A DNA stretch of 63,645 nt from Gammaproteobacteria bacterium. Its GTDB lineage: Bacteria > Pseudomonadota > Gammaproteobacteria > Pseudomonadales > Azotimanducaceae. The translations under genes were made by a program, and so were the position numbers. The stretch is from contig VYDB01000078.1 in the NCBI GenBank assembly GCA_009843635.1, forward strand, positions 1 to 63,645. The letters are read 5' to 3'. The notes beneath the pieces were generated by a model that was given only the letters and a program-made list of their open reading frames with translations, searched no databases and was not told the DNA's origin. Shown here in pieces: positions 1 to 46,026 of this stretch (within the stretch, counting starts at the first letter, position 1; the number at the start of each line of letters is the position of its first letter).

Positions 1-116
1 TCCCCGGCAACGCAAACCCCGCCCAATCAGGGGCAGGGGGGCGAGTAGTTACGAGGTATTTTGCATTCCCCAAAACCCCCTCCAGATCGTCAAGCTGGAA
101 TAGGGCTGTTCCCCCG

Positions 117-1865
117 TTGATGATCGCAGGTTTCGCGGCCATTGTGATCTACATCGCCGCCGCGGCCGTCCTGCTCTATACGAACCCCCTTCTGTTTGCC
201 GACGACTGGCGCCACTACAACCACTATTTCTTCGAGAGAGATCTCATAAACGCCATCTTCGGACGAGAGAATCTGCATCTGATGATTTTGCCAAACATCA
301 TGTTTCTCTCGAATTACCTGTTTTTCGACGGTCGAATGAGCAATCTGGCGTTGATCAATGTCGGGTTGCTATCAACTTCGGCAGCCTTGGCGGCTTTCGC
401 TTGGCTGCGGGCAACTTGGAAGCCGGACAGGCATATGGCTGAAGTGGCCGGCGCGTTTCTGGTTTGGGCGGCCATTCTATTGTTTCTGGGTGCCCCACGA
501 ACGCTGTTTTGGGGTATCGGGGTCCACAACCATCTGGTCGTGCTCGGTGCGTTTGGCGCCGCGCTGTTCGCGTCGGGTCTCACTGGCTCCCTTCGGAAGC
601 CCATCAATTTTATCGGATTCATTGGTTTCGCGACAATCGCTTCGACGAGCTTTACTACCGGAAGTGCCGTTTGGATGCTGGGGTTTCTCGGCGCTGTCTT
701 AAATCGAGAGAGGCTCAGTACAACGCTGACCTTGCTAATTGTCGGGCTAGCAGGACTGATCACAACTGTCTGGCCAATGCTGAGTAAAGGAGTCGTAGCA
801 GACGCTGGGCTCAATGTGACTTCCCTACTCGTGTTCTGCGCATCTCTGTTCGGGAGTGCTTGGACCACTGTAGGGCCAGACCTGGCACAAGGGAACGAAC
901 TTCTGGTCTGTGCGGGCATAGGCGCCTTTGGAGTGCTAGTCATCATTTTGGCAGCAGTTCGCACATTGCTACGACCCGAGATCAGCGAGATGGATCGCCT
1001 CTATTGCTATTTCGTACTCATTGGTTCGTTCGTCGTTGCAGCCAGCCTGATGATTGGCTACGGTCGCATCGAGCTTGAGCACGGTCTGTGGGAAAGCCTC
1101 CGCCCTCGCTTCCACACTTGGTCGCTGTTGGGTTGGGCAAGCGTAGTTGGCGTGATGCTCGGAGCCGCTTACGAAGCAAGCCATAGGTTTAGAACGCACT
1201 GGCCACTCACCGCCTATGTTGTCTCGCTGCTTCTCTTGATCCTCCTTGGAAACCTAAACGTCATCAATTCCTCTCTCCGCCACACTTATTCATATTGGAT
1301 GGATACAGTGACGCAAGTTGCCGTGAATCACATCAACCGACCGACTGACAGACGACTTTGGAGAGACCGGGAGGACGTATGGCTAAGGGTCATTGATCAC
1401 CTTAGATCGCATAAACGCAACATCTATGCGGAGTCCTGGCCCCATCGAATGGGCCATGACATGTCAACAGTGCGGGATCAACTCAACAATCGATGCAACT
1501 CAGAGTTAGAAGTAATGCCAAGCAATAGGCACGATGAGTGGATTGTACGCGGCTGGATACTGCCGCAATCCAAGCACTCGGCACCCATAACCAACGTGTA
1601 CTTTCTAGACAAAAAAGGACAGACCATCGGTTTCTCGAAACCGATATTCGGCTCACAGCGCGGCGAAAACCAGCGGTATCGAGATCACATGATCTGGCCT
1701 GCTCGTTTGATGGATTCACTTGGCCTTCGAAGTGCCCGGGACATTCCCGGGGTTTCAGGCCACTTTTTGGGGCGCATCATTGCCGACGAGTCTAATGCCG
1801 ATCAAGTTCGCAGGCAGTTGCAGTTTGTGGCCGAGACCAAGTTTGGCTGGTCATGCACGGGATAG
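117..1865 (+). CDS. Polytopic integral membrane protein (582 aa). The N-terminal about 400 aa are rich in hydrophobic helices and the C-terminal about 180 aa are soluble. Function unknown, possibly polysaccharide assembly or modification given the neighbourhood
   Basis: Long ORF. The translation shows about 12 hydrophobic segments (e.g. AAIVIYIAAAAVLLY, LLFLGAPRTLFWGIGV, LLVFCASLFGSAW, GAFGVLVIILAAV). It lies first in a lower-GC cluster with sulfotransferase and glycosyltransferase genes. Confidence 0.5.
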   Translation: MMIAGFAAIVIYIAAAAVLLYTNPLLFADDWRHYNHYFFERDLINAIFGRENLHLMILPNIMFLSNYLFFDGRMSNLALINVGLLSTSAALAAFAWLRATWKPDRHMAEVAGAFLVWAAILLFLGAPRTLFWGIGVHNHLVVLGAFGAALFASGLTGSLRKPINFIGFIGFATIASTSFTTGSAVWMLGFLGAVLNRERLSTTLTLLIVGLAGLITTVWPMLSKGVVADAGLNVTSLLVFCASLFGSAWTTVGPDLAQGNELLVCAGIGAFGVLVIILAAVRTLLRPEISEMDRLYCYFVLIGSFVVAASLMIGYGRIELEHGLWESLRPRFHTWSLLGWASVVGVMLGAAYEASHRFRTHWPLTAYVVSLLLLILLGNLNVINSSLRHTYSYWMDTVTQVAVNHINRPTDRRLWRDREDVWLRVIDHLRSHKRNIYAESWPHRMGHDMSTVRDQLNNRCNSELEVMPSNRHDEWIVRGWILPQSKHSAPITNVYFLDKKGQTIGFSKPIFGSQRGENQRYRDHMIWPARLMDSLGLRSARDIPGVSGHFLGRIIADESNADQVRRQLQFVAETKFGWSCTG

Positions 1866-2374
1866 GCCGCACATTTTGGTCCAAGCCGCTATCCACCCTC
1901 AGCGCCAACCACACCTAGCCAGTCGCGGAGAACCGGCTTTACCGGCCCAACCATGGCCATGATGGCCCGCTACAGCCTGCAGTACTGAGGCCCCGATCCA
2001 GATCGCCGTTGCCGTTGAGATTCTCCCGCCGAGCGCCAGCGCATCCACCGACTGCCGGACAATGTCCCTAGCCGCGTGGATCCCAGGTGATGGCGGCGCC
2101 GATTCTCGCCCTCCGCCTCAGTGCGCTTCCTCTCGACAGCTATGAAGTGGGTGAAACTCGCGGCACCGCCTGGGCACGCCATAAACCCTGTTAGGACGTG
2201 GCTAACATGCGGAACTGGTCCAAGTGAGCGAGGGCTTGCGCCAGACACGGTCCCACCGGGCGAGACATGGGCCGCGATTGTTATGCTTGCTTCTCAACCT
2301 CGCGGGGAGGTATTCTAACCTCCCACAGAGGTGCTAACCTCTGTTCTCTCCCAATATTGCAACCGGCCCTCTCA

Positions 2375-3157
2375 ATGCACCTTCGCGATGACAAGTTCAT
2401 GGTTAGCTGCGCGGCGCGAAGCGGTAGCACCATGCTGTGTTCACTGATACGCTCCCACCCGCAAGCGATCTGCCACGGTGAAGTCCTTGCCCAGGAGCAG
2501 CCCCCTGTTTCCGGCATCTACGGACGCAAGCTCAAGGGCGATCCGGAGTTCGGCCGGCTCGTTCGCCAGTACCGAAACGAGCAACCGCAAAGGTTTCTCT
2601 ACGACATCGTCTTTGATCCGCAGGGGCACCGCTGCGTCGGATTCAAGTTCAAGACGGATGAGGCGTTTCAACCCCGTTTCAAAGCCATTCGAGAGGTCAT
2701 CTCCGCCGACAAGGACATCAAAATCATTCACTTGATCCGGCGCAACTTGATCGATCAGTACGTATCCCATCGAGTCGTCGAGCAGACAGGCTTGACGTTT
2801 CTGCGGCCATCCGACGACCGGCCACAGTTGGTGCCGTTCAGGGTGGATATCGATCACTTCATCGCCTATGTCACGGATTTGAAGGAAAGGCAGCAGGCAG
2901 CGCATGATCTCTATCGCGACCATCGAAGCTTGGTTCTCGCCTACGAAGACATTGTTGCTCCGCAGTCGTCCGCCCTAGACGACCTCCAGGCATTTCTGGG
3001 CATAGACAGACGCCCGCTTTCCACGCCACTGTTGAAGATCATCGGGAACAACAGCGAAATGGTTCTGAACCTAAAGGAGGTTCGGGCTGCGCTCGCGGGG
3101 AAGCAGTCAAGCACGCACAACGGCCAACAAGCCGAAGCGCGGTCGTTGGAAGTCTGA
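2375..3157 (+). CDS. Sulfotransferase family protein (Stf0/NodH-like PAPS-dependent). The ORF in the track is probably N-terminally over-extended; the start is likely at the MHLRDDKF Met or the nearby MVSCAARSGST Met
   Basis: 5'-PSB P-loop-like motif AARSGSTMLCSL near the N-terminus and a downstream LIRRNLIDQYVS (3'-PB-like R-x-N) motif. The ORF is 2267..3157. Confidence 0.65.
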   Translation: MHLRDDKFMVSCAARSGSTMLCSLIRSHPQAICHGEVLAQEQPPVSGIYGRKLKGDPEFGRLVRQYRNEQPQRFLYDIVFDPQGHRCVGFKFKTDEAFQPRFKAIREVISADKDIKIIHLIRRNLIDQYVSHRVVEQTGLTFLRPSDDRPQLVPFRVDIDHFIAYVTDLKERQQAAHDLYRDHRSLVLAYEDIVAPQSSALDDLQAFLGIDRRPLSTPLLKIIGNNSEMVLNLKEVRAALAGKQSSTHNGQQAEARSLEV

Positions 3158-3196
3158 CAAGCTCTGCGCAGTCAGGGCTCTAGAGCACCTCGCACG

Positions 3197-6100
3197 GTGG
3201 AAAAGGGGAATCCAGCCAAGGCGATCATTATCGCGGGCATGCACCGCAGCGGCACTTCAGCCCTCAGCCGAACGCTGAACCTAGTGGGTTGCGACGCGCC
3301 CAACACGTTGATGGGCGGCGACAACCGAGGCAACGAGCGCGGCCATTGGGAATCGCAACCCATATTCGAATTGAACAACGAGTTATTGGCCTCCGCAGGC
3401 TCGAGTTGGGAGGATTGGGAGGCCATCAACCCAAGCTGGTACGCGTCTCCGCTCTATCCCAAGTACTTCGAAAAGAGCCTTGAGGTCCTAACTGCCGAGT
3501 TCGGATCGAGCCCCCTGTTCGTGGTCAAGGATCCGCGCTTTTGCCGATTGATGGACTTTTGGACCAAAGTCATCGAGTCCTTCGGCGCCTCGCCGTTGGT
3601 CATCATGCCAATCCGAAATCCGCAAGACGTCGCTGCCTCTCTCAAGCACCGGGATGCGATTGATCCTTCCGTCGGCCGGTTGCTGTGGCTGAGGCACGTT
3701 CTGGAAGCTGAGGCAGGCAGTCGCGGCTACCCGCGAGTCACCGTTCGCTTCGACCAACTGCTGAACGATTGGCGCGGCCTCGTGACCCGCATCGGAGAGG
3801 CGCTTGAGGTGTCCTGGCCGAATATGTCGAGTGCTGCGGATATGGAAGTCGATGACTTTCTGACGCCCGATCTGCGCCACCATGCCGATCCGAGAGACGA
3901 CGTCGAGCCCAACACCCCAAGGATCCGCTGGATAGCCGAAACCTACGAAATATTGCAAAAGTGGTCGGCCGGCGAAGAGCGCAGTTCGGACCTCGCCAAG
4001 CTTGACGAGATCAGGTCGAACCTCAACGCCTTGGGGCCGCTCTTCGGCCGCCCTATCCTGCTCGGACGAAGGGCGATGCGTGACGCACGCGAGTTGAACG
4101 CAAAGCGGGAAGAACTGACCGATCTTCTCGATGCCGAAAGAACCAAGGTCAACGGTCTACAGGAAACACTTGCCCAGCGGCAGGCTGAAGTTGAGACCCT
4201 GCGCCAATCGATCGCCCAAAAGCAGGCCGAGGTCGAGTCCCTGCAACAGTCGAATGTCCAAGAGCTTGAGTCTTTACGGCGGTCGAACACTAAGGAGCTT
4301 GAGACCCTACAGCGGTCGAATGCCCGGGAACTCGAGACCCTGCACCAATCGATTGCCCACAAGGCCGAGGAAATCGCTCGCCAGGAGGCCCGCATTATCG
4401 ATCAGGACCAAGCGATCGGTGGCCACGTCCGCGAGCAAGCGTCGCTTAGCGACACCCTCGCCAACACGCGAGACCAAATTGACGCACTGATGTCGGCCGT
4501 CAACGAGCGGGAACGGAGAATCGCCACCTTGCTGCAGTCCTCAAGCTGGCGGTACACGGCCCCGCTGCGGAACACTAAGCTTGGCTTGGCTTGGCTTTTG
4601 CGCAAGGTCGTGCGCATAGCGCAAATCGGCGGCTGGTTGTGCACTGGCCAGTTTCGCAAGGCGGCGCACGCCGCCCTGCCGTTCTACCGCAGGCATGCCC
4701 CCCGATGGGTGGGAGCCCTGATTCCCCGTCGGCTTCGTCAATGGCTACGGGTCTCCACCTCTTCCCCGTCAAACGCCGTCCTGCAATCCTTGCAGCATCT
4801 GGACCAAGCGGACAGGTACGAACACACCCAGTTCGTACCCGAGTTCAGGGGCTCCCCCCCTGACTCGAACGGCGTGCGGCTCATCGCCTTCTACCTGCCT
4901 CAGTTCCACCCCATTCCAGAAAATGACGCTTGGTGGGGCGAAGGGTTTACGGAGTGGACCAACGTGCGCGCCGCAAAGCCGCTGTTTGCCGGACACTACC
5001 AGCCCCGGGTGCCCATAGACTCAGGCCATTACGACCTGCGCGACCCGGACGTTCAGCACCGCCAAGTGGATTTGGCCAAGCGCTACGGTGTGAGCGGCTT
5101 CTGCTTCTACTTCTACTGGTTCGCTGGCCACCGGCTGCTGGAGACTCCGCTACTCAACTACCTCAACGACCCCGCCATGGACCTGCCGTTCTGCCTCTGC
5201 TGGGCCAACGAGAACTGGACGCGGCGTTGGGACGGCAGGGAACAGGATCTGCTGATCGGCCAACGGCACTCGGAGAGCGACGACTTGCAATTCATCGAAT
5301 ACGTGTCGCTCTACCTCAACGATTCCAGATACATCCGTATCGACAACCGCCCCTTGCTTCTAGTCTATAAGCCGGACCTGTTTCCCGATGCGGCGGCCAC
5401 CGTCCGCCGGTGGCGCGAGTGGTGCAGAGAGCATGGGGTTGGCGAGCTCTACGTGGCCATGGTGCAGTCCTTGCAGGACTTGGATCCTAGGCCCTATGGC
5501 ATGGACGCAGCCATCGAGTTCCCGTGGCATACCGGACTGCCCAACGACATAACCACGCATGTGCTGCCTCCGGAAACCGGGTTCAGCGGCTACGTGTTTG
5601 ATTGGGATGACTACGCTGCCAAATGCCATGAGCAGCCCGATCGACCCTGGACCCAGGTCCGGGGCGTGATGCCGGGCTGGGACAACACCCCACGCCTGAA
5701 GTCAGCGGCGCACCTCTTCCAAGGCCACTCACCGGCAACCTACAGCAGGTGGCTGGTTTCCGCGATGCGCTGGACACTCGACCGAATGAGAAAGCCCGAG
5801 GAGCGGTTGGTGTTCATCAACGCCTGGAACGAATGGGGGGAAGGCGCCTATCTCGAGCCCGACCAGCGCTTCGGCTACGCGTTCCTGCAAGCGACTCGCG
5901 ACGCGGTCGAAGCGGTGGCGCGGCAACCAACTAACCCAGTACGTCCGCACCCGCTGTCCACCGGCGCCCAATCGTTAATCGTCAAGCAGGTCGTCCCGAT
6001 GGGCTCCAAGCAAACCGCCTCGGTCGCTGGCATTCGACTGAAATGCCCTGCGGAACCCGACATATCGGTCGTGATACCCGTCTATGGAGAGTGCCAATTG

Positions 6101-7990
6101 ACCCTGCGCTGCCTCAAGTCCCTGAGCGACTTGAGCGACCGGCGGTCATTCGAAGTCGTCCTAGTGGATGACGCCTCCGAGGACGAAAGCGCTGAGCGCC
6201 TGAGCGCAGTGCCCGGCATCCGCTATCTGCGCAATGACGAAAACCAAGGCTTTCTCAAGTCCTGCAACCGGGGCGCAGCTGTCGCTCAGGGCCGCTATCT
6301 CTTCCTGCTGAACAACGATACCGTCGTGGAGAACGGCGCTTTGGATGCGCTTGCGGATACTTTTGACGATCATGACAACGTTGGGCTGGTCGGCGCCAAA
6401 CTCTATTTCGAGGACGGGCGCCTGCAGGAGGCCGGAGGCATCGTTTGGTCGGACGGTTCCGCTATGAACTACGGCCGGGGAGACGACCCCCGCAAACCAG
6501 AGTACAACTACGTGCGCGACGCCGACTACTGCAGCGGCGCCGCAATCATGCTGCCAACCGTCTTGTGGCGTCGCCTGAACGGCTTCGACAGCTACTACGT
6601 GCGCGCCTACTATGAAGACACCGATCTCGCCCTCCGGGTTCGACAAGCAGGCCGCCGAGTACTCTACCAACCCTTCGCCAAGGTTGTGCACCGCGAGGGC
6701 GCCACGTCTGGCACCGACCTCTCCAAAGGCGAAAAACGCTATCAGGTGGAAAACCGCAAGCGATTTCTCGAGCGTTGGCGCGACAAGTTGGCCAGCGACC
6801 ACCCCGCCCCTACCACCCCGCCGCAACTCGCCAAGGACCGGGGCGCGGCTGCCCGAGCGCTGGTCATCGACTGGGACATTCCAACGCCTGACCACGACTC
6901 GGGCTCCCTAGACACCTTCAACCTCATCCGCATGCTGAACCACCTGGGGGTGAAGACAACCTTCGCCGCCCACCGCGACCTCGCCTACTTTGGCGAATAC
7001 ACGGACGCCGTGCAAAAACTCGGGGCGGAGGTGCTGTATGCACCTTACTGCAACTCACTACGCACCTTTCTTCAGGAACACGGAAAGGAACAAGACTACG
7101 TCATCGTCCATCGTGTTGGCGTTTTCAAGGAGGTTCAACCGGAGTTGAAGAGATTCTGCCCCCAAGCCCGCATCATCTTCAGCACCGTGGACCTACACCA
7201 CATCCGGGAGGCCCGCCAAGCTGAAGTGGAGAACTCCCAGCGCCTCAGAAAAAAAGCTGAGGCCACCAAACGGGACGAGATCAAGTTGGCCCGCAAGGCT
7301 GACGCCACGATCGTGGTGAGCAAAACCGAACAAGCCCTGCTTGAAGAGGCATTGCCCACCGTCCCAGTCTTTCACATGCCGCTCATTCGGGATGTGCCCG
7401 GATTGAGTGAGGCGGCTTTCGACAGCCGTCGCGGCATCGGTTTTTTGGGCAACTACCTCCACCCGCCGAATATGGACGCCGTTTTGCACTTCGTCCACGA
7501 CATCTGGCCCGAATTCCGCTCAGCAGTGCCACACGCGGAGTTGTACATTGGCGGCGGGCAGATGCCTTCCGAAGTAGCTCAGCTTAGCGATCTTGAGGGC
7601 GTACAAACGCTCGGCTACGTGCCGGACCTAGCGGCCTTCTACAATCGAATTCGGTTGACCGTCGCGCCGTTGCGCTACGGCGCCGGCGCCAAGGGCAAGG
7701 TGGTGTCTAGCCTCTGCCACGGGGTGCCGGTCGTCGCTTCGCCCATCGCGGCCGAAGGGATGGATGTGGCGCACGGGCGAGACATCCTCATTGCCGGCAA
7801 TCAGGCCGAGTGGATTGAGCACCTCGAAAGCGCCTACTGCGATCCAATCCTGTGGAGGGCGCTGTCGGAAGGCGGCACTGCGACCATGCAACGTAATCAC
7901 TCCCTCACCACAGGGGTGGTCGAGCTATCCCGCATCCTGGCGCTTGATGAAGTCGATTTTGGGCGCAAAGCAGCCCCGACGGCGCTGTAG
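3197..7990 (+). CDS. Giant multidomain glycan-modifying enzyme (1597 aa). It has an N-terminal sulfotransferase domain, a coiled-coil with tandem repeats, a WbsX-like glycosyltransferase domain, a GT2 (GT-A, D-x-D) domain and a C-terminal GT4/GT1-like (GT-B) domain
   Basis: Sulfotransferase motifs IIIAGMHRSGTSALS (5'-PSB) and PIRNPQDVAAS (3'-PB). Heptad-rich region LETLRQSIAQKQAEVESLQQSNVQELESLRRSNTKELETLQRSNARELETLHQS. WbsX-family signature FYLPQFHPIPENDAWWGEGFTEWTNV. GT2 signature ISVVIPVYGE...VVLVDDASEDE...NNDT. GT-B C-terminus GYVPDLAAFYNRIRLTVAPLRYGAGAKGKVVSSLCHGVPVVASPIAAEG. Confidence 0.85.
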   Translation: MEKGNPAKAIIIAGMHRSGTSALSRTLNLVGCDAPNTLMGGDNRGNERGHWESQPIFELNNELLASAGSSWEDWEAINPSWYASPLYPKYFEKSLEVLTAEFGSSPLFVVKDPRFCRLMDFWTKVIESFGASPLVIMPIRNPQDVAASLKHRDAIDPSVGRLLWLRHVLEAEAGSRGYPRVTVRFDQLLNDWRGLVTRIGEALEVSWPNMSSAADMEVDDFLTPDLRHHADPRDDVEPNTPRIRWIAETYEILQKWSAGEERSSDLAKLDEIRSNLNALGPLFGRPILLGRRAMRDARELNAKREELTDLLDAERTKVNGLQETLAQRQAEVETLRQSIAQKQAEVESLQQSNVQELESLRRSNTKELETLQRSNARELETLHQSIAHKAEEIARQEARIIDQDQAIGGHVREQASLSDTLANTRDQIDALMSAVNERERRIATLLQSSSWRYTAPLRNTKLGLAWLLRKVVRIAQIGGWLCTGQFRKAAHAALPFYRRHAPRWVGALIPRRLRQWLRVSTSSPSNAVLQSLQHLDQADRYEHTQFVPEFRGSPPDSNGVRLIAFYLPQFHPIPENDAWWGEGFTEWTNVRAAKPLFAGHYQPRVPIDSGHYDLRDPDVQHRQVDLAKRYGVSGFCFYFYWFAGHRLLETPLLNYLNDPAMDLPFCLCWANENWTRRWDGREQDLLIGQRHSESDDLQFIEYVSLYLNDSRYIRIDNRPLLLVYKPDLFPDAAATVRRWREWCREHGVGELYVAMVQSLQDLDPRPYGMDAAIEFPWHTGLPNDITTHVLPPETGFSGYVFDWDDYAAKCHEQPDRPWTQVRGVMPGWDNTPRLKSAAHLFQGHSPATYSRWLVSAMRWTLDRMRKPEERLVFINAWNEWGEGAYLEPDQRFGYAFLQATRDAVEAVARQPTNPVRPHPLSTGAQSLIVKQVVPMGSKQTASVAGIRLKCPAEPDISVVIPVYGECQLTLRCLKSLSDLSDRRSFEVVLVDDASEDESAERLSAVPGIRYLRNDENQGFLKSCNRGAAVAQGRYLFLLNNDTVVENGALDALADTFDDHDNVGLVGAKLYFEDGRLQEAGGIVWSDGSAMNYGRGDDPRKPEYNYVRDADYCSGAAIMLPTVLWRRLNGFDSYYVRAYYEDTDLALRVRQAGRRVLYQPFAKVVHREGATSGTDLSKGEKRYQVENRKRFLERWRDKLASDHPAPTTPPQLAKDRGAAARALVIDWDIPTPDHDSGSLDTFNLIRMLNHLGVKTTFAAHRDLAYFGEYTDAVQKLGAEVLYAPYCNSLRTFLQEHGKEQDYVIVHRVGVFKEVQPELKRFCPQARIIFSTVDLHHIREARQAEVENSQRLRKKAEATKRDEIKLARKADATIVVSKTEQALLEEALPTVPVFHMPLIRDVPGLSEAAFDSRRGIGFLGNYLHPPNMDAVLHFVHDIWPEFRSAVPHAELYIGGGQMPSEVAQLSDLEGVQTLGYVPDLAAFYNRIRLTVAPLRYGAGAKGKVVSSLCHGVPVVASPIAAEGMDVAHGRDILIAGNQAEWIEHLESAYCDPILWRALSEGGTATMQRNHSLTTGVVELSRILALDEVDFGRKAAPTAL
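4150..4400 (+). repeat. Intragenic tandem repeats of about 33 nt (11 aa) that encode the coiled-coil segment of the multidomain enzyme
   Basis: Repeated DNA units ...gag(t/a)c(c/t)ct(g/a)c(a/g)(a/g)cggtcgaa... translate to LESLRRSNTKE / LETLQRSNARE / LESLQQSNVQE. Confidence 0.6.
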
Positions 7991-8005
7991 TCCTGCCCCT
8001 GCCTG

Positions 8006-8908
8006 ATGAACAACAAAGTTGCGCCCCGGCTTGGCACCGCAATTTCCAAGCTCCGCCAAAGCCCAGGTTCTCGAGGCTCGCGGGACCAGCGGAAGATCGT
8101 TCTTCACTACCATCTCTTCAAGAACGCCGGAACCAGCATCGACCAAATTCTGAAGAATAACTTTGGCGAGCAGCGGTGGCGCAACCAAGAATTTCCATCG
8201 GGCGGCGGCACCTTGGCGATCCTCAAAGGCAATTCGTGCTCGAACGCAGTTGAGGATTGGCTGCGCACAAACCCCGACGTGCAGGTTCTTTCTTCCCACA
8301 CCGCCGTAATGCCACTCCCCAACATCCCCGCCACCACTGTTTTCCCGATTCTGTTTGTGCGCCATCCGTTGACCCGACTGCAATCAGCCTATTTCTTCCA
8401 ACGCCATCGATTCCACGCTGGCATTGACAAGATGGCAACTCGATTGGCAGCCCAAAGCGACTTCGCTGGGTACGTGAGCGGCCTGATGGCCCGGCAGAAC
8501 AACAGCATGGCGCGCAACTTCACCGCCGTTCGACTGGCAGCAGCTGTACCCGGCCCCACGAACCAACTCGAACAGCGCGCCCTTAGTGCCCTGAACACCC
8601 TGCCATTCGTCGGATCGGTCGAACGGTTCAACCAATCACTAAGCGTGATGGAGCACTGGCTGCGACCGCACTTTCCCGGCTTCCGCGCCGACCCTGTCTG
8701 GCGCAATGCCACCCAAGGCCAGCCGCGCTCAATGTCAGACCGACTTGACCAGATTCTCGACGATCTTGGCCCTCGGCTCTACGAACAAGCATTGCAAGTG
8801 AATGAGGCTGATCTGTTGGTCCACAAAGCAGCTATGGCAAGAATTGAGGCGCTATACGACGCGCTTTCAGCGACGACTAGCCAAGGGGATCAAGGAGCCA
8901 GAAACTGA
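8006..8908 (+). CDS. Sulfotransferase family protein (carbohydrate-sulfotransferase-like, Sulfotransfer_2/3 type)
   Basis: N-terminal H-x-x-K-x-G-T-S motif (HYHLFKNAGTSIDQIL). This resembles the PAPS 5'-phosphosulfate-binding loop of HNK-1 and heparan carbohydrate sulfotransferases. It lies 16 nt downstream of the multidomain enzyme on the same strand. Confidence 0.55.
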   Translation: MNNKVAPRLGTAISKLRQSPGSRGSRDQRKIVLHYHLFKNAGTSIDQILKNNFGEQRWRNQEFPSGGGTLAILKGNSCSNAVEDWLRTNPDVQVLSSHTAVMPLPNIPATTVFPILFVRHPLTRLQSAYFFQRHRFHAGIDKMATRLAAQSDFAGYVSGLMARQNNSMARNFTAVRLAAAVPGPTNQLEQRALSALNTLPFVGSVERFNQSLSVMEHWLRPHFPGFRADPVWRNATQGQPRSMSDRLDQILDDLGPRLYEQALQVNEADLLVHKAAMARIEALYDALSATTSQGDQGARN

Positions 8909-9023
8909 TGCAGTAGCGCACCGGGCAATCGACGCCCCTCCCATACAGATCCTCAAAGCGCACAACAAAGCGGTTTCCGAAGAATGAACCGGGTCGCCTC
9001 CCGTGACACCCGGCAGGAATGAA

Positions 9024-9053
9024 CCGGGGCGAACGGCAATCCGTTCGCCCCGG
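9024..9053. terminator. Bidirectional intrinsic terminator hairpin between convergent genes
   Basis: Perfect 13-bp inverted repeat ccggggcgaacgg-caat-ccgttcgccccgg. It lies between the + strand sulfotransferase (end 8908) and the - strand SPFH gene (end 9072). Confidence 0.55.
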
Positions 9054-9071
9054 TCTCAAGGCCGCCCGAGC

Positions 9072-10208
9072 TCAGGCTTTCAGGCGAACCAGTTCGTTGA
9101 GTACGCCGTCAAGGCCGCCGTACACGGAGAGACTGCCGACTTTCTCGGTGATCTTCTCCAGCGTCTCCAGTTCCTTCAGGCGCAGCGCCACCGCATTGCT
9201 CTCCATGACCTTGGCCGTGTTGAGCAGCGAGCGGGTCGCATTCGTTTCCTCGCGACGCCGGATTACGTTGGCCTGGGCGGCTTTTTCGGCCTCGACCACC
9301 TTGCCGAGCAGCAACTTCATGTCGCCCGGCAGGATGATGTCCTTCACGCCGACGCCCTCGACCGCGATGCCGATGCCGGCGAACCGGTCCACGACCCGCT
9401 CGGCAACCGCCCGGTCGATGGCTGCCTTGTCCTCCAGCAGCGCATCCAAGGTGCGCGTTCCCACCGCGGCGCGCAGGCCGAACTGGATCTCCTTGTACAG
9501 GTGATCGAGCGGATCCTTCGCCGCACGCACCGCCTTTTCCGCGTCAACATAGCGGTAGGTGGCGGTGAGGTTCACGCGCAGGCTGACCTTGTCGCGAGTC
9601 AGGATTTCCTGGCCCTGAACCTCCAGCGTCTTCACGCGCAGATCCATGACGTCAACCCTGACGCTCGGGCCGCAGTTCCAGAACGCATGCAGGCCGGACT
9701 CGAGCGTACCGGTCAACCTGCCCTCGACATACAGCAGCCCGACATGTCCGTCCGGAACCTCCTGCGAATACAGGGGCCGCCGGCCCAAGCCGAACAGGGT
9801 GTCGAGCGGCCGAAGGCGCTTGGCGAGCTGACCATCGAGTTCGAGACCCTCATCAAGGTCGAACCGCTCAACCCGCGTGGACACCGGACCCTTCCAGTAC
9901 AGGCGACGTTCCGTCGGCGCCACGATCTCGGCTGCCCGCTCGTTGTGATAGACGACCGCCACCTCATTGGCGCCGGTTTCCACCAAGGTGAACAGTTGCT
10001 CGACGATTTCGCGTTGGGCCTCCACCAGGTAATCGACCAGCCGATGCTCGAACAGCGGACTGGCGAGGTCGAAGGTCTCCACCGCGTAGCGCGAGCGCAG
10101 CCCATGGAATCGATAGGTCCCCGGTTCGAGGAACTGGAGGAAGTCTCCGTCCCTGAACAGGAGCCCGCGTTCGTGCTTCAGCACGATGAACTTCTGAGAA
10201 AACAACAT
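9072..10208 (-). CDS. SPFH/band-7 domain protein (stomatin/prohibitin/flotillin superfamily)
   Basis: Translation FIVLKHERGLLFRDGDFLQFLEPGTYRF ... VKTLEVQGQEILTRDKVSLRVNLTATYRYVD ... C-terminal coiled-coil EAEKAAQANVIRRREETNATRSLLNTAKVME. The start is likely at MLFSQKF (ORF extends to 10286). The + strand ORF 9003..10523 is its shadow. Confidence 0.8.
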   Translation of the reverse strand: MLFSQKFIVLKHERGLLFRDGDFLQFLEPGTYRFHGLRSRYAVETFDLASPLFEHRLVDYLVEAQREIVEQLFTLVETGANEVAVVYHNERAAEIVAPTERRLYWKGPVSTRVERFDLDEGLELDGQLAKRLRPLDTLFGLGRRPLYSQEVPDGHVGLLYVEGRLTGTLESGLHAFWNCGPSVRVDVMDLRVKTLEVQGQEILTRDKVSLRVNLTATYRYVDAEKAVRAAKDPLDHLYKEIQFGLRAAVGTRTLDALLEDKAAIDRAVAERVVDRFAGIGIAVEGVGVKDIILPGDMKLLLGKVVEAEKAAQANVIRRREETNATRSLLNTAKVMESNAVALRLKELETLEKITEKVGSLSVYGGLDGVLNELVRLKA

Positions 10209-10589
10209 GTCGCGTTCTCCTTGCCCTTGTTGCCTGCGAATTCGGTCTTCCGCAAGTTGGTAATGCGCCCGTTCCCACAACCGCACGGCGGACCGGCGGT
10301 GCCGGCCGTTCGAACGATCCGCGCACCGGCGCCGGATGATCCCCCGCTCCCGAAAGAGCCGGAGACCCGTGCGACGCCGGCGGGCGATACGCCGGACCGA
10401 CCAGCGCGTCGACCGGGCTTAAGCCCGACCAGCCTCCACCTGCCGGCAATGCGATTGCCGCTCTGCCGAACCCGCCGCTTGCGCGGCCAGCCGCGGCAGC
10501 GCCGGGAACGGGCGCCCATGTGACGCATAGCGCTCGTCACCAGCGTTTTGCACGGTTATCAGCCGTGTAGACCTCTTTGAAGGAAGTCT

Positions 10590-10666
10590 GTGTTGGAATG
10601 CCGGACTCGAACCAGCAACCACCAGTTCCCAGACTGGAGCTCTACCCTATTGAGCTAATTCCCTGC
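10590..10666 (-). tRNA. tRNA-like element, apparently degenerate (Trp/Pro-like cloverleaf with defects). Possible pseudo-tRNA or integration remnant
   Basis: The reverse complement reads AGGGAAT-TA-GCTCAATAGGGTAGAGC-T-CCAGT-CTGGGA-ACTGG-TGGTT-GCTGG-TTCGAGT-CCGGC-ATTCCAA-CA. The D-arm and the T-arm (GGTTCGAGTCC) are canonical. The anticodon loop is only 6 nt, and acceptor positions 1-2/71-72 are A·A mismatches. Confidence 0.45.
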
Positions 10667-10855
10667 ACAGGCCGGGTGCATACAAACCGCTCGATACACA
10701 CCGTGCGATGGGTAGCGTTGGTGCGCCGGGCGGGACTCAATGAACCCGCACCTCAAGAACGCCATACGCCGCCCAGCCTTTCTTTGGACGAAGCAACGTT
10801 CCTCGCCCTTTGCCCCACCCCGGCCACCGGGTGGCGCCTCACCTTTCTTCAGCGC

Positions 10856-10888
10856 AAAAAAAACCCTGGGCGGCAGGCCGACCAGGGC
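10856..10888 (-). terminator. Rho-independent terminator on the minus strand
   Basis: Minus-strand reading gives ccctggtcggcctgccgcccaggg (about 10-bp stem) followed by a 9-T run. On the + strand this is aaaaaaaaa-ccctgggcggcaggccgaccaggg. Confidence 0.5.
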
Positions 10889-11227
10889 TTTCTTGTGCCT
10901 GGAAGGCCAATTCGCGTTGCCTTCCAGGTCCATTGTGGAAGGTCAACGCATTGCCGGCTCGCCGCTACGGACGGATTGGCGGGCAAATCCGCAACACCAA
11001 ATCGAATCGAGCGCCAACGCCCCGCGGCCGCTTTCGCAGGGGCACGGGAGGCGTTCGATCAACGCAGATTTCGCTCTTGTCCGGATCACCGGGTTTTTCC
11101 TCGCAACGCAATCTTCAAAACAGTGGGCGCGGCATTCTATGGATGCTTGGCCGCTTGTCAAACACTTTTTTTTCACCGCTTCGCCTAGCGCCCAGTCATA
11201 CTGCCCTGAAGGCCCACCTCTCCCGAG

Positions 11228-12643
11228 CTAGCGCGGTCCCCGCCCGTACTGGTCATCAAAGCGGACGATGTCATCCTCGCCAAGATAGTCACCCACCTGA
11301 ACCTCAATGAGCTCAAGGGTCCGATCCGCCGGATTGCGCAGGCGGTGCTTCGTGCCCTGGGGGATGTACGTACTCTGGTTTTCGGATAGCGAGAACGTGT
11401 CTTCACCGCATGTGACTTCGGCCACGCCCCGCACCACCACCCAGTGCTCGGCGCGGTGGTGATGCAACTGCAGCGACAAGCTGGCGCCCGGCTTCACCTT
11501 GATGCGCTTGACTTGATAGCGTTCGCCATGCCCAACACCTTCGTAGCTGCCCCAAGGACGAAACACCTCAGTGTGCAGGCTGTGCTCTGAGCGGCCGGAA
11601 TCACGCAACTGCGTCACCAGGGCACCCACGTCCTGAACCCGGCTTCGATCAGCGACCAACACCGCGTCGGCGGTCTCCACGACAACCAAGTGATTGACGC
11701 CGATGGCGCCCACCAAGCGATGGCTCGAATAGACGAAGGTGCGGTCCACATCCAAGGGCAGCACGTCGCCAACGAAGTGGTTGCCGCGCCCATCCGCCCC
11801 GGCAGTCTCCAGCACCGCCTCCCAAGAGCCGATGTCGCTCCACCCGAAGTCCACCGGCAGCACCGCGGCGCGGGCTGTTCGTTCCATCACCGCGACATCG
11901 AATGAGACGTTGGGGCTGCGCAGAAACGCATCGTTCAGGCGAAAGAAGTCGAGGTCCGATTGGCCCTTCTCAACCGATTCGGCAACGGCTGCCGCCATTT
12001 CGGGGCTGTGCGCCTCGATCTCCGCCAAGGCAACTTCCGCATCGACCAGGAACATGCCGCTGTTCCAGAGATGGCGGCCAGAGGCCACGAAAGCGCGGGC
12101 GCGCTCAGCATCAGGTTTTTCGACGAAGGCCTGAACCGGCTGAACGCCCGGCTGGCCGGCAACCGCCAGCTCAATGTAGCCATAGCCCGTTTCCACACGG
12201 GACGGCACGATGCCGAACGTCACCACCGCGCCGCCCTCGCTCGCCTCCTGGGCGGCCTGGACCGCCGCGGCAAAGCCCTCGGCGTCCTCGACCTGGTGGT
12301 CGGCGGGCAGCACCAGCAACTGCGCACCGGCAGCATCGGCCATGGCCAGATGGGCGGCCAGCGCAATGGCTGGCGCGGTGTTGCGGCCCTCTGGCTCCAA
12401 GGCGATGCACTGCCAAGGCAACTCCAGCGCTCGGAGCTGTTCAGCGACCAGAAAGCGGTTGGCCTCATTGCAGACGACAATCGGCGGTCGGCTGGTGACC
12501 CGCGCCGCCCGCAACGCGGTGCTCTGCAGCAGGGAGCGCTCGCCGAACAAGGCATGAAAGGGCTTGGGGAACAGCGCCCTCGACAGCGGCCATAGACGGC
12601 TGCCAACGCCGCCGGCCAACACCACCGGAATGAGGGGTTTCAA
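11228..12643 (-). CDS. manC: Mannose-1-phosphate guanylyltransferase / mannose-6-phosphate isomerase (bifunctional type II PMI-GMP, AlgA/XanB/ManC family)
   Basis: N-terminal nucleotidyltransferase motif MKPLIPVVLAGGVGSRLWPLSR. C-terminal cupin with QLHHHRAEHWVVVRGVAEVT. 471 aa. Confidence 0.9.
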   Translation of the reverse strand: MKPLIPVVLAGGVGSRLWPLSRALFPKPFHALFGERSLLQSTALRAARVTSRPPIVVCNEANRFLVAEQLRALELPWQCIALEPEGRNTAPAIALAAHLAMADAAGAQLLVLPADHQVEDAEGFAAAVQAAQEASEGGAVVTFGIVPSRVETGYGYIELAVAGQPGVQPVQAFVEKPDAERARAFVASGRHLWNSGMFLVDAEVALAEIEAHSPEMAAAVAESVEKGQSDLDFFRLNDAFLRSPNVSFDVAVMERTARAAVLPVDFGWSDIGSWEAVLETAGADGRGNHFVGDVLPLDVDRTFVYSSHRLVGAIGVNHLVVVETADAVLVADRSRVQDVGALVTQLRDSGRSEHSLHTEVFRPWGSYEGVGHGERYQVKRIKVKPGASLSLQLHHHRAEHWVVVRGVAEVTCGEDTFSLSENQSTYIPQGTKHRLRNPADRTLELIEVQVGDYLGEDDIVRFDDQYGRGPR

Positions 12644-12791
12644 GTGGGTTCGCGCCTTGGGACAGAGGCTAGGAGAAAACCGAACGGGGCTGGCGGCATC
12701 TCGGTGGGACCTGTTCGGCAGGGCAGTGCCGCAATTCTAGCATTAGCGCTCACTGGCTGAGTGTTCGGGATGTAGCGACTCCAGCCCCACT

Positions 12792-13133
12792 TCAGGGCGG
12801 CGGCGTTGGCGCCAGCGCCGTGCCGCTCATGTGGCCGATGGCGTCAGCGAGTTCCTGCTCCGAGCAGTCAAAGCACAGCCCCATGGCAGGCATGCCCACC
12901 ATCCCATCGATGGTGGAGCGCAGCAACGCGTCCCGGCCCTTGGCCATGCGGGGCGACCAAGCCTCGGCATCACCCGTCCGGGGCGCTCCGGCCACGCCTG
13001 CCGCATGGCAGGAGAAGCAATAGCGTTGGTAAACGGCAGCACCGGAACGATGAGCCTCTATGGCCGCTTCGCCGCCAGCTTCAGGCGGAGCCGCGTCTTC
13101 CCCGCAGGCGGCAAGGCCAAGGCAGGCAGCGCA
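12792..13133 (-). CDS. c-type cytochrome (class I, c5-like), probably a lipoprotein. The track ORF (12792..13463) is over-extended upstream
   Basis: Heme-binding CFSCHAAG (CxxCH). Signal/lipobox-like LLCAACLGLAAC. C-terminal ...MPAMGLCFDCSEQELADAIGHM. The start codon is unresolved and may be non-ATG. Confidence 0.55.
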   Translation of the reverse strand, partial: CAACLGLAACGEDAAPPEAGGEAAIEAHRSGAAVYQRYCFSCHAAGVAGAPRTGDAEAWSPRMAKGRDALLRSTIDGMVGMPAMGLCFDCSEQELADAIGHMSGTALAPTPPP

Positions 13134-13309
13134 AAGCAGCCAGCCGCGAACCCCCGCCCGAAGCCATGGGAGTCGGCGTTTTCCCGTCCTTCTTCGACGA
13201 AACAAATCCCCAACCTCCCGATGGAAAGTGCTTTCCAAAAGCCCAATCGAGGGCGGGACGTCCTCGCTCCGGAGGGTGACGCCGGGACCGGGGGCCGCAC
13301 GTCCATCGG

Positions 13310-14098: not shown

Positions 14099-14101
14099 GG
14101 G

Positions 14102-15290: not shown

Positions 15291-15501
15291 GGAGGGGTGG
15301 CGGATTCTGGCCCACCCGCCCGTTGAATTTCAACGCCAACGCGGATGAACAGAGCCTTCATTGACGCCCTGACCCACAACGGGTTTTGCCCAGACCCCGC
15401 CGGGTTGTTAGCATTCGCGCCCCATCCTGCCCGCACCGCATCCAGTGTCGGTGCGGCCAGGGCGTTCCAAACCGCCAAGATGCAGAAGGACCCATCCAGC
15501 C

Positions 15502-28525: not shown

Positions 28526-28608
28526 CCCAACGGACATTGCCCAACAATTCATCGATCTTCTGTGGCACACTTTTGCGCTTGGCTTGGCGCGCAAATCGAG
28601 AGACCGAA

Positions 28609-41361: not shown

Positions 41362-41656
41362 AGTTTCACGCGGCCCAAGCAGACCCTGCCGCGTTGCGTC
41401 TCAGCGGCAGTCGATGTCAGGTTGGTCCTGCATAGGCGTACACAAGGTACAGGCCAGCTCGCTCAAATGGTTGTAAAGTTGAGTGTGGATTGCCAGTCGA
41501 TGGGTGTCAACTCGCCCAAAACGCTCGCCCGAAGCCCCGCCGCTTCAGGGACAATCGCAGCAACCACGGATGAATTCGCCCTAGTGGCGGCTTACCGTAG
41601 GGAAAACTCTGGTCATCACCTAAGCATCAAAATCAATCGGCTCCGCTAGCCCACCA

Positions 41657-44596: not shown

Positions 44597-44613
44597 GGAT
44601 CAATACTTCCAGG

Positions 44614-45872: not shown

Positions 45873-46026
45873 GCGGATAGCCTCATTAGGGAAGACTCAC
45901 AACCCCGCGCAGCGACAGGCTCGACCGTCAACGGTGCGGCAGCGACCCTTCTGAAATCCCAGGGCGCTGCATCCCAATAGCCGCTCTCTTCGGCCTCCCG
46001 AACCGGAACTTTGAGCCTCACTTCAC

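Follow-up and report, generated by a model that had tools for sequence, protein, structure and literature searches.

Does a single bacterial polypeptide unite the enzymes that extend a surface glycan with the one that ends it, and could that ending be a sulfate? The question is raised by a 63,645-nt stretch of gammaproteobacterial DNA (the window in what follows), in which one long reading frame had been read, from its letters and translation, as a fusion of a sulfotransferase, a coiled coil, a WbsX-like domain and two glycosyltransferases, laid out like the coiled-coil "molecular ruler" enzymes WbdD and WbbB. We followed up this sequence-only reading with domain profiles, predicted structures, orthologue comparisons and the gene neighborhoods of the wider family.

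The fusion is a single, conserved protein

3197–7990, plus strand: multidomain ORF of 1597 aa (GTG start, 1597 codons, no internal stops)

The single-frame fusion was borne out. The frame runs uninterrupted, its product is 100% identical to MYH15482.1/MYK84458.1 (named "glycosyltransferase [Gammaproteobacteria bacterium]" at NCBI), and 24 orthologues with 63–81% identity have the same single-frame architecture. Because the protein is identical in independent assemblies and the 24 orthologues each lie in one frame, we rejected a frameshifted or chimeric assembly that had joined domains from different frames. From N to C terminus, the order of modules is PAPS-sulfotransferase-type module, coiled coil, Arg/Trp-rich amphipathic segment, WbsX barrel, GT2 module and GT4-like module. 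Pfam searches matched Sulfotransfer_3, Glyco_tran_WbsX, Glycos_transf_2 and Glyco_trans_1_4, and the motifs first quoted are in place (HRSGTS at aa 16–21, RNPQD at aa 140–144 and FYLPQFHP...WWGEGFTEWTNV at aa 565–590). Invariance and segment lengths were counted over 25 orthologues, in which every module except the coiled coil is of fixed or near-fixed length.

The N-terminal module resembles PAPS-dependent sulfotransferases

3197–4075, plus strand: N-terminal PAPS-sulfotransferase-like module, aa 1–293 (Pfam Sulfotransfer_3 and Foldseek)
3236–3259, plus strand: 5'-phosphosulfate-binding loop GMHRSGTS, aa 14–21 (H16–S21 invariant)
3614–3640, plus strand: 3'-phosphate-binding motif R140-N-P-Q-D-V-A-A-S148 (R140 and S148 invariant)

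By sequence, the kinship of this module to known sulfotransferases is faint. The Pfam Sulfotransfer_3 match (aa 10–208) is a marginal pass, with 27.2 bits relative to a cut-off of 27.0; a sequence search among solved sulfotransferases gave no significant match (best E 0.17), and single-sequence phmmer against the PDB returned nothing useful. A profile of the module produced weak PDB matches, yet these were sulfotransferases. When the predicted model, which is of moderate confidence, was searched with Foldseek, the top 14 matches were all sulfotransferases (E 8e-5 to 2e-3), the best being TPST1/2, the olefin-synthase and CurM sulfotransferase domains and SULTs, with P-loop kinases among the lower-ranked matches.

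Together with these fold matches, the invariance of both PAPS-binding motifs upholds the assignment. The H16–S21 loop, in which Arg replaces Lys, presumably as in TPST, is invariant in the 25 orthologues and in 23 diverse family members; the same is true of R140 and S148 (R-x7-S), in a stretch that aligns to "RNPKDVAVS" of SULT1A3 in a profile alignment. Among the diverse members E52 is also invariant and is a candidate catalytic base, as are K111, E172, R176, R180 and H228 invariant. With TPST1/2 and the CurM/olefin-synthase domains of the Sulfotransfer_3 clan, the module shares the fold and the R-x7-S motif; it differs from them in sequence (only 13–18% identity), in its presumed glycan acceptor and in being joined to a coiled coil and glycosyltransferases. 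Its location is N-terminal in 120 of the 120 top homologues.

A coiled coil of variable length precedes a candidate membrane anchor

4067–4537, plus strand: coiled coil of ~155 aa, candidate ruler, aa 291–447 (coil matches, AF2 helices, periodicity)
4235–4341, plus strand: 33-bp tandem repeat, 3.2 copies, encoding 11-residue repeats in the coil
4538–4756, plus strand: SSSWRxTxPLR motif and Arg/Trp-rich amphipathic segment, aa 448–520, candidate membrane anchor

A heptad coil of roughly 130 aa had been described here; the coil stands, its length is corrected to ~155 aa, and its heptads are mixed with 11-residue repeats. SMC/Rad50-type coil matches from NCBIfam cover aa 295–445, and a profile search of PDB sequences matched the coil to the needle coil of gp26. 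In the AF2 prediction, long helices span aa 286–357 and 365–447; the segment contains no Pro and has a hydrophobic periodicity of 3.55. The AF2 monomer model (pLDDT 66) is compatible with either a continuous coil or a hairpin. We set aside its helix break at aa 358–364 as evidence for a hairpin: the break lies inside the 11-residue repeats, away from the Gly-Gly at 408–409, and divides the coil into near-equal halves, a splitting that monomer predictions of long coils often show.

Among the 25 orthologues the coil is by far the most variable segment, ranging from 95 to 200 aa, and the length differences are multiples of 7 or 11 residues in 38% of pairs (permutation p ~0.0004). Other internal repeat expansions occupy the same coil region in orthologues, and the variation in length arises via internal repeats. 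The amphipathic segment that follows has 16 K/R and 3 D/E, five Trp and a high hydrophobic moment, and together with the SSSWRxTxPLR motif it contains residues invariant in the 25 orthologues. Of 281 family members, 103 have the motif; where short members carry it, it sits close to their C-terminus.

A GH99-like barrel and two glycosyltransferase modules

4880–5896, plus strand: WbsX module, GH99-like (beta/alpha)8 barrel, aa 562–900 (Pfam PF14307, AF2, Foldseek)
5831–5842, plus strand: E879-W-G-E882, matching the GH99 catalytic motif EW[H/G]E (invariant)
6056–6706, plus strand: GT2 (GT-A) module, aa 954–1170 (Pfam PF00535/PF13641)
6839–7942, plus strand: GT4-like GT-B module, aa ~1215–1582 (Pfam Glyco_trans_1_4 and a TIGR03087-like match)

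The WbsX domain is present as first read, matching PF14307 (Glyco_tran_WbsX) over its full length (profile positions 1–350, E 3.6e-132, 441.5 bits); its fold, however, is that of a GH99-like glycoside hydrolase and not of a classical glycosyltransferase. For the AF2 model of the module (pLDDT 90.5, pTM 0.92), Foldseek placed GH99 endo-alpha-mannosidases/mannanases at ranks 2–37 (E 1e-12 to 4e-9, TM ~0.6). The E879-W-G-E882 sequence is invariant in the 25 orthologues and in 43 diverse WbsX modules and matches EW[H/G]E, the GH99 catalytic motif (PMC11025385); judged by sequence position, E879 and E882 would be equivalent to the GH99 catalytic glutamates. The module thus has a fold and motif like those of the GH99 endo-alpha-1,2-mannosidases/mannanases (MANEA, BtGH99, BxGH99), but here it would belong to the cytoplasmic portion of an enzyme of biosynthesis, and phmmer with the single WbsX sequence against the PDB gave nothing useful, similarity to GH99 being undetectable at that level. 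Literature searches found no biochemical study of any WbsX domain. A "WbsX" O-antigen glycosyltransferase of Burkholderia gladioli is likewise giant (>1,450 aa) and multidomain and takes its name from the WbsX domain, a comparison made on WbsX domain, size and gene cluster; it lies in a Wzt-dependent O-antigen cluster, and genetic evidence shows that losing it changes the LPS phage receptor (PMC13391952).

The GT2 module (Glycos_transf_2/Glyco_tranf_2_3) matches PF00535 (E 6e-24) and PF13641 (E 1e-13), and a PDB profile search returned the chondroitin synthase K4CP and other GT2 enzymes. It had been described as a D-x-D domain; the GT2 assignment holds, and the acidic motifs are DDAS, NND and EDTD, not a plain DxD, with D991, D992, N1040, D1041, E1140, D1141 and D1143 invariant in the 25 orthologues. 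The C-terminal GT-B domain, first read as GT4, is GT4-like, with matches to Glyco_trans_1_4 (PF13692, aa 1412–1547, E 1.2e-17) and, in NCBIfam, a TIGR03087-like match at aa 1340–1582. On inspection, the residues leading up to the GVPVV anchor are RYGAGAKGKVVSSLCH, with A1496 and S1504 at the glutamate positions of E-x7-E, and the module appears to lack the canonical E-x7-E glutamates.

The locus carries further sulfotransferases and no wzm/wzt

53–1865, plus strand: GtrA-fused polytopic membrane protein, 3' part, truncated by the contig end (Gtr-type periplasmic glycosylation system)
2375–3157, plus strand: stand-alone sulfotransferase of 260 aa, Sulfotransfer_3/Stf0-like, 40 bp upstream of the 1597-aa ORF
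8006–8908, plus strand: stand-alone sulfotransferase of 300 aa, Sulfotransfer_2-like, 16 bp downstream of the 1597-aa ORF
11228–12643, minus strand: manC, GDP-mannose pyrophosphorylase/mannose-6-P isomerase, conserved right border of the island

The 1597-aa ORF and its two flanking sulfotransferase genes form a tight operon-like row. The upstream product, with motifs ARSGST and RRNLIDQYVS, is 78% identical to that of the gene upstream of orthologue P0008, and the downstream product, with motifs FKNAGTS and RHPLTRLQS, is 76% identical to that of the gene downstream of orthologue P0003. The truncated GtrA-fused product has multiple hydrophobic helices and is 57% identical to aa 157–734 of a GtrA_DPMS_TM protein at locus L009; the full product is 737 aa in a sister genome. 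In L091, a 99.5% identical genome, the GtrA-fused gene is complete and accompanied by a GtrB-like GT2; the upstream island there comprises LysR, the GtrB-like GT2, the GtrA-fused membrane protein and a sulfotransferase, with housekeeping genes beyond. On the right, manC synteny is common to L004, L005, L009, L010 and L091. An ORF at 9003–10523 (plus strand) was dismissed, as it has no family match and overlaps an opposite-strand Band_7 gene. Locus L015 had been considered as a same-contig paralogue; because blastn against the window gave no match, it is not tied to the source genome and was rejected.

Wzm/wzt genes upstream had been named as something to look for, and the search was negative in the window and in L091. 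No wzm/wzt or ABC-2 transporter occurs in the 63.6 kb window, including 55 kb downstream of the ORF, and no wzm/wzt in the 10 kb upstream in L091 or at the orthologous loci L004, L005, L009 and L010. A Wzt with a C-terminal carbohydrate-binding module (CBM) is likewise not present at the locus of the 1597-aa ORF. We rejected the possibility that wzm/wzt lies just past the contig edge, since the full upstream island in L091 is transporter-free. Genes for PAPS synthesis were not seen in the window either.

Relatives are widespread, some beside Wzt_C transporters

With a threshold of E<=1e-30, 4,803 cluster representatives start with the sulfotransferase module, and the family that pairs it with a coil is widespread in Alpha- and Gammaproteobacteria. 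Its members are either joined to glycosyltransferases or are coil-only proteins of ~600–700 aa, corresponding to WbbB-like and WbdD-like formats. A Wzt-like ATPase lies within 10 kb of the family gene at 22 of 80 genome loci of more distant members. At five of these 22 loci (L089, L077, L078, L084 and L062), the Wzt directly upstream of the family gene carries Wzt_C (E 1e-22 to 1e-31), and a Wzt_C transporter is a hallmark of capped glycans (PMC11231755). Of the Wzt proteins checked beside family members, roughly half have no CBM. In Dyella jejuensis the cluster is complete, with rml, wzm, wzt-CBM and a sulfotransferase-coil-GT4-GT2 gene; other cultured carriers of the module family are Xanthobacter autotrophicus DSM 431, Sphingomonas daechungensis and Donghicola eburneus.

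The architecture parallels terminator/ruler enzymes

In WbbB (Klebsiella O12) and ORF6 (Klebsiella O7) the order is modifying domain, coiled coil and glycosyltransferase modules, and in WbdD the terminating domain and a membrane-binding amphipathic region are kept apart by the coil, whose length sets that of the chain (PMC11231755). The WbdD/WbbB-like layout proposed for the 1597-aa protein holds for the order of domains and for coil variability; it does not extend to sequence homology or to wzm/wzt at the locus. A full-length profile search of PDB sequences gave only GT2 enzymes and one coiled-coil protein, and because it named neither WbdD nor WbbB, the likeness is one of architecture, not of detected homology.

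Closer comparison brings out what is shared and what is not. WbbB (Klebsiella pneumoniae O12/Raoultella terrigena) is also a single polypeptide with an N-terminal modifier, a coil and C-terminal glycosyltransferases (PMC11231755), but its terminator is a GT99 beta-Kdo transferase where our protein has a sulfotransferase-fold module, and its gene adjoins wzm/wzt-CBM whereas the gene here does not; our protein, moreover, has three modules after the coil, the GH99-like barrel among them. ORF6 (Klebsiella pneumoniae O7) likewise has an N-terminal small-group transferase, a coil and C-terminal GT2 modules, with further transferases separately encoded in both cases (PMC11231755). Its cap enzyme, however, is a methyltransferase-kinase giving methyl-phosphate, where sulfate is presumed here, and it sits in an ABC-transporter locus and is experimentally validated. 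WbdD (E. coli O9a/O8) is resembled by the ~600–700-aa family members that consist of sulfotransferase module and coil only; it has no polymerase modules, recruits WbdA as a separate protein, and carries a kinase and a methyltransferase as catalytic domains. Methyl, phospho-methyl and Kdo groups are the caps so far characterised where a ruler controls bacterial glycan synthesis (PMC11231755), and literature searches found no paper describing a sulfotransferase terminator.

A model for the fused enzyme and its alternatives

The reading we prefer, to which we give an even chance, is that the protein assembles, as one polypeptide, a sulfated surface glycan that probably contains mannose, and that it follows the terminator/coiled-coil ruler/polymerase plan. 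By analogy, sulfate would cap the chain and the coil would set its length; because wzm/wzt is absent from the locus, sulfate termination is a step that we can only infer. The amphipathic segment would hold the three C-terminal modules on the cytoplasmic face of the membrane, where they would extend a polyprenol-linked chain, with ManC-made GDP-mannose as the likely donor. The coil, up to ~23 nm if it forms one continuous parallel coil, would keep the sulfotransferase off the membrane. The two small sulfotransferases would put on further sulfate, the Gtr system would add a periplasmic side sugar after export, and the exporter would be encoded elsewhere in the genome. In favor of a surface destination, we count the Gtr-type system of the island.

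Several observations count against this reading: the lack of wzm/wzt in the island and at the orthologous loci, the marginal Pfam score and the candidate status of E52 as catalytic base, an AF2 monomer model that would also fit a hairpin, the PAPS-synthesis genes not seen in the window, the Wzt proteins without a CBM beside relatives, and the presence of three sulfotransferases at the locus, of which the fused one is a candidate for the chain-end step. The O-antigen cluster of Aeromonas salmonicida also weighs against it, as a sulfotransferase ORF is present there, yet the published structure showed no sulfate (PMC4483657). A more far-reaching form of the preferred reading we hold to be less likely: sulfation would be a genuine chain-terminating cap in ABC-transporter-type assembly, made via the large sulfotransferase/coiled-coil family, some caps would be read by a dedicated Wzt_C, and the GH99-fold WbsX here would also be a polymerising transferase endowed with the fold and catalytic pair of a glycoside hydrolase.

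Somewhat unlikely, in our view, is that the same surface glycan is made with the fused sulfotransferase decorating internal residues and the coil acting as an oligomerisation or scaffold element for a multi-enzyme complex. The three sulfotransferases at the locus belong to different families, and heavy in-chain sulfation is therefore plausible; a CBM-bearing Wzt is absent, several relatives are paired with a short Wzt without CBM, and methyltransferases replace the accessory sulfotransferases at related loci, a kind of swap common among decorating enzymes. A decorator, however, would gain nothing from lying at the coil's far end from the glycosyltransferases, as the fused module does in all 120 homologues; changes in coil length also keep their 7/11 periodicity, and five relatives directly adjoin the Wzt_C transporter that marks capped glycans (PMC11231755).

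We consider it improbable that the enzyme lies outside any ABC-transporter O-antigen or capsule pathway, with the glycan built on another acceptor (protein, glycolipid, or a cytoplasmic or periplasmic polymer) or exported otherwise, and the GH99-like barrel serving as a trimming or releasing endo-glycanase. Wzm/wzt is absent near the gene and its orthologues, several relatives stand alone beside sugar-nucleotide genes only, and the WbsX barrel keeps both putative GH99 catalytic glutamates. Yet O-antigen genes are frequently scattered across a genome, and the island's Gtr-type system indicates that the glycan is polyprenol-linked and enters the periplasm. Giant proteins of the WbsX type are, moreover, linked genetically with Wzt-dependent O-antigen in Burkholderia gladioli (PMC13391952) and, in Plesiomonas, with wzm/wzt clusters. 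Finally, that the N-terminal module is inactive, being either a regulatory domain that senses PAP/PAPS or a degenerate domain of nucleotide-binding or kinase-like type, is very hard to credit: its threshold-level Pfam score, the lack of a significant sequence match among solved sulfotransferases and the lower-ranked P-loop kinases would fit, but the loop has no Walker-A lysine and carries a sulfotransferase-type xRSGTS, the sulfotransferase-specific R-x7-S is invariant and aligned to the SULT motif, the best fold matches are all sulfotransferases, and purifying conservation is strong over thousands of proteins.

The barrel poses a second question, whether a GH99-like fold with apparently intact catalytic glutamates in a biosynthetic enzyme is a hydrolase-fold transferase or a trimming enzyme. 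The gene, which comes from an uncultured gammaproteobacterium, is already in the databases with the generic label "glycosyltransferase"; it is of value as a well-resolved example rather than an experimental system. Because the module family is very large and present in cultured strains, the sulfate-cap hypothesis is directly testable. Structures of sulfated surface polysaccharides are known from marine bacteria, and their biosynthesis is poorly understood. If sulfate does cap the chain, as in the reading we prefer, it would be a new terminator chemistry beside methyl, phospho-methyl and Kdo (PMC11231755), and it would give a genetic handle on the bacterial synthesis of sulfated surface polysaccharides.

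A single gene fuses a predicted sulfotransferase to a coiled coil, WbsX and glycosyltransferase modules

We found that window 3197-7990 (+) holds a single ORF (the giant gene) that starts at GTG and runs through 1597 codons uninterrupted by a stop, bearing out the multi-domain, single-frame fusion proposed by the sequence-only reading, all of whose quoted motifs are present in the protein. Domain searches gave the following matches.

Family matches along the 1597-residue protein
aa 10-208: Sulfotransfer_3 (Pfam; 27.2 bits, barely at the cut-off of 27.0)
aa 295-445: SMC/Rad50-type coil matches (NCBIfam)
aa 562-900: Glyco_tran_WbsX (Pfam; E 3.6e-132)
aa 954-1170: Glycos_transf_2 / Glyco_tranf_2_3 (Pfam)
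aa 1340-1582: TIGR03087-like GT-B match (NCBIfam)
aa 1412-1547: Glyco_trans_1_4 (Pfam)

Because the identical protein is present in NCBI, ENA and Logan assemblies, and 24 orthologues (63-81% identity) keep this architecture in a single frame, a frameshift or other sequencing artefact is ruled out and the fusion is genuine. The gene is already deposited under a generic name.

On the basis of fold and cofactor motifs, we conclude that aa 1-293 form a predicted PAPS-type sulfotransferase. H16-R-S-G-T-S21 and R140..S148 are invariant across 25 orthologues and in 23 family members that are just 35-51% identical, and profile alignment pairs R140..S148 with the 'RNPKDVAVS' 3'-phosphate-binding motif. 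An Arg in the loop occupies the position where P-loop kinases need Lys, which we take to be as in TPST. The AF2 model (mean pLDDT 66, catalytic core mostly 70-90) finds its closest structures among sulfotransferases, namely TPST1/2, the olefin-synthase and CurM sulfotransferase domains and cytosolic SULTs; the best PDB matches of the module profile, SULT1A3 and SULT7A1, are statistically weak.

The WbsX module (aa 562-900) was modeled confidently by AF2 (pLDDT 90.5, pTM 0.92) as a (beta/alpha)8 barrel, whose nearest solved folds are GH99 endo-alpha-mannosidases/mannanases (E 1e-12, TM about 0.6), with GH71 next. GH99 enzymes share the catalytic motif EW[H/G]E (PMC11025385), and the module carries E879-W-G-E882 near the barrel end, at the corresponding place; this sequence does not vary among 43 diverse WbsX modules. 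Some orthologues bear the NCBI name 'glycoside hydrolase family 99-like domain-containing protein', so the fold relationship was already recognised, and we found no biochemical study of any WbsX domain in the literature. The putative role of the module is either sugar transfer, as the Pfam name assumes, or chain cleavage or trimming.

The GT2 module is conventional by its Pfam and PDB profile matches. At window 7640-7740 (aa about 1493-1513), the place of the usual GT4 motif E-x7-E, the GT4-like module reads RYGAGAKGKVVSSLCHGVPVV; by inspection, A1496 and S1504 fall at the sites of the two glutamates. The surrounding G1495-G1497, K1499-V1502 and S1504-C1507 are invariant in the orthologues, and the substitutions could reflect an unusual donor or a non-canonical subfamily.

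Coil length varies while the other modules stay constant or nearly so

The coil (aa 291-447) contains no proline, is rich in E/L/A/R/Q with a hydrophobic periodicity of 3.55, and is predicted by AF2 as long helices; within it, a 33-bp tandem repeat encodes 11-residue units. Across the 25 orthologues its length ranges from 95 to 200 aa, whereas the WbsX, GT2 and GT4 segments are constant at 339, 247 and 391 aa and the sulfotransferase module measures 293 aa in 24 (279 in the other one). Two short linkers vary slightly (112-116 aa; 55-63 aa, with one of 98). The coil indels are expansions of internal repeats, and among distinct coil lengths 38% of pairs differ by multiples of 7 or 11 residues relative to roughly 22% expected (permutation p about 0.0004, in a test that takes lengths as independent when related sequences are not). 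Changes in coil length appear to be tolerated or favoured by selection with the coiled-coil register kept, and we regard this variation as the most informative result of the analysis.

Directly after the coil, within aa 448-520, an invariant SSSWRxTxPLR motif leads into a segment that counts 16 Arg/Lys, only 3 Asp/Glu and five Trp and whose helical hydrophobic moment is high. The motif occurs in 103 of 281 family members and lies 16-30 residues from the C-terminus in seven of the eight short members that have it. These properties fit a candidate membrane-interface anchor at the base of the coil.

The giant gene lies in an island with fixed borders and exchangeable accessory genes

The window begins at the end of its contig, which truncates the GtrA-fused gene so that the first ORF (117-1865) is only the 3' part of its 737 codons. 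Window 53-15344 is 99.5% identical in DNA to sister locus L091, a cluster member on the 1.36 Mb contig ctg853833_18x_l of ENA ERZ25069412, where the whole island is therefore visible; window 1-52 gave no alignment to that contig. Housekeeping genes lie upstream of LysR at L091.

Gene order of the island at L091
LysR, first in order (opposite strand)
193-aa ORF
GtrB-like GT2
GtrA-fused polytopic membrane protein, 737 aa
Sulfotransfer_3 gene, directly before the giant gene
giant gene
Sulfotransfer_2 gene, directly after the giant gene
Band_7 (opposite strand)
210-aa ORF, between Band_7 and manC
manC, last in order (opposite strand)

Both small flanking sulfotransferases carry PAPS-type motifs, so three sulfotransferases are encoded at the locus. 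Gtr-type systems act on glycan that reaches the periplasm on a polyprenol carrier, and the presence of Gtr-type genes implies that the island's glycan would travel this way. The sequence-only reading had suggested looking upstream for wzm/wzt, the ABC-2 transporter genes; this search was negative, as no ABC-2 transporter was found in the island, in the 10 kb upstream at L091 or in the whole 63.6 kb window.

Orthologous loci (L004, L005, L009, L010) retain the giant gene between LysR and manC borders and swap the accessory enzymes. Compared with the window and L009/L091, methyltransferases replace or accompany the small sulfotransferases in L004, L005 and L010, with Gtr genes present or absent; in some islands the giant protein bears a 421-aa methyltransferase tail, or there are one or two stand-alone methyltransferase genes, and others have Sulfotransfer_2 and Sulfotransfer_3 genes. 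Because borders and giant gene are constant while accessory enzymes are exchanged, this is the behaviour of a variable surface-glycan island, and the lower GC of the first 12 kb of the window (0.55-0.62, against about 0.65 beyond) is consistent with it. In the complete-looking genome of the P0015 locus (L003), the orthologue sits amid transposase genes (Transposase_31, DDE_3, DDE_Tnp_1), which suggests that the gene there is mobile.

Two window ORFs between the sulfotransferase operon and manC form a pair that is present in L004 and L091 and absent from L005, L009 and L010.

9072-10208, - strand: Band_7/SPFH protein
10598-11188, + strand: 196-aa ORF, no family match

Elsewhere in the window (26047-26973 and 28300-29454), a fourth Sulfotransfer_3-like ORF, in the vicinity of a TauD-family dioxygenase, is borderline: at 26.9 bits it falls just short of the cut-off of 27, and its match is limited to the PSB-loop region. 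The two may belong to a wider organosulfur metabolism of the organism. A low-GC block (34729-49197; about 0.53-0.60) holds an ordinary restriction-modification island. Besides type II C5 and type II N6 methylases, it encodes a GHKL-ATPase protein that weakly matches a type II REase, a type III methylase of 979 aa (1249 bits), a DUF1828 protein and a ResIII helicase/REase of 1056 aa. Three further features have no link to the giant gene.

53353-56289: 978-aa AAA_16 plus TPR protein
59402-61105: formate-tetrahydrofolate ligase
61316-62866: MttB-family methyltransferase

The N-terminal module belongs to a large family, part of which is linked to wzm/wzt

Homology searches indicate that the predicted sulfotransferase module is not peculiar to this protein. 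It stands at the extreme N-terminus in all 120 best homologues, followed by a variable spacer and varied sets of WbsX, RgpF, GT2, GT4 and methyltransferase modules. Among 1.84 billion cluster representatives searched, the family comprised 4,803 proteins at E<=1e-30, rising to 12,744 at E<=1e-10; species-representative genomes contained at least 560 loci with the module, most of them in Alpha- and Gammaproteobacteria and many in cultured strains. Members either consist of just the sulfotransferase and a coil (about 600-700 aa) or are fused to glycosyltransferases, two formats that mirror those of WbdD and WbbB, respectively.

Capped, length-controlled glycans have as hallmarks a coiled-coil protein with a terminator and a Wzt bearing a carbohydrate-binding module (CBM) (PMC11231755). 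A Wzt-like ATPase was encoded within 10 kb in 22 of 80 fetched family loci, and the cap-binding CBM, Wzt_C, was clearly present in five of the ten Wzt tested, all five directly upstream of the sulfotransferase-module gene. The Dyella jejuensis JP1 cluster at locus L089 (rml genes, wzm, wzt-Wzt_C, ST-coil-GT4-GT2, acyltransferase, GT2, GT-C and UDP-GlcNAc 2-epimerase) is a textbook case. Some members are paired with a short Wzt without CBM, and others stand alone or next to sugar-nucleotide genes only.

A putative terminator-ruler-polymerase machine

The parallel drawn by the sequence-only reading to coiled-coil ruler enzymes holds for layout, in which the giant protein resembles WbbB and ORF6-O7. 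It is not a detectable homologue of WbbB, ORF6-O7 or WbdD, and the transporter genes by which those systems are defined are missing from its locus. In the Klebsiella O7 D441A mutant, modal chain length is lost and polymer that is not exported builds up inside the cell. We give about even chances to a terminator-ruler-polymerase machine whose fused sulfotransferase caps the chain and whose exporter is encoded elsewhere. At the membrane, the C-terminal modules would polymerise the chain, a likely donor being the GDP-mannose that ManC makes, and the coil, if it is one uninterrupted parallel structure, would keep the sulfotransferase at a distance of up to about 23 nm (155 residues, each about 1.5 Å). 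Extension would stop once the growing end is sulfated, the small sulfotransferases and Gtr system would decorate the chain further, and the product would leave through the transporter encoded elsewhere. What the analysis itself shows is the architecture, the cofactor motifs, the register-preserving coil length variation, the island content and the wzm/wzt-CBM association of relatives.

The main rival, in which the fused sulfotransferase has only a decorating role and the coil serves as a scaffold, strikes us as a real though lesser possibility. We consider it improbable that the product bypasses the ABC-transporter route altogether, the GH99-like barrel then serving as a glycanase. That the N-terminal domain is sulfotransferase-like but inactive is highly unlikely.

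The terminator chemistries described in PMC11231755 are methyl, phospho-methyl and Kdo. We found no open-access report of a sulfotransferase terminator. A 2019 bioinformatic census reportedly predicted 'new chemistries' of terminators and may already list a sulfotransferase module. In the Aeromonas salmonicida wb cluster, wzt and a WbbB homologue flank an ORF of 216 aa with a sulfotransferase domain, yet the published O-antigen structure has no sulfate (PMC4483657); either a terminal cap present in substoichiometric amounts escaped notice, or ORFs of this kind have another function. The GH99-like module is a second question raised by the giant protein. A sulfate terminator would be a natural extension of the established model, a reading backed by the very large size of the family, which has members in cultured organisms.
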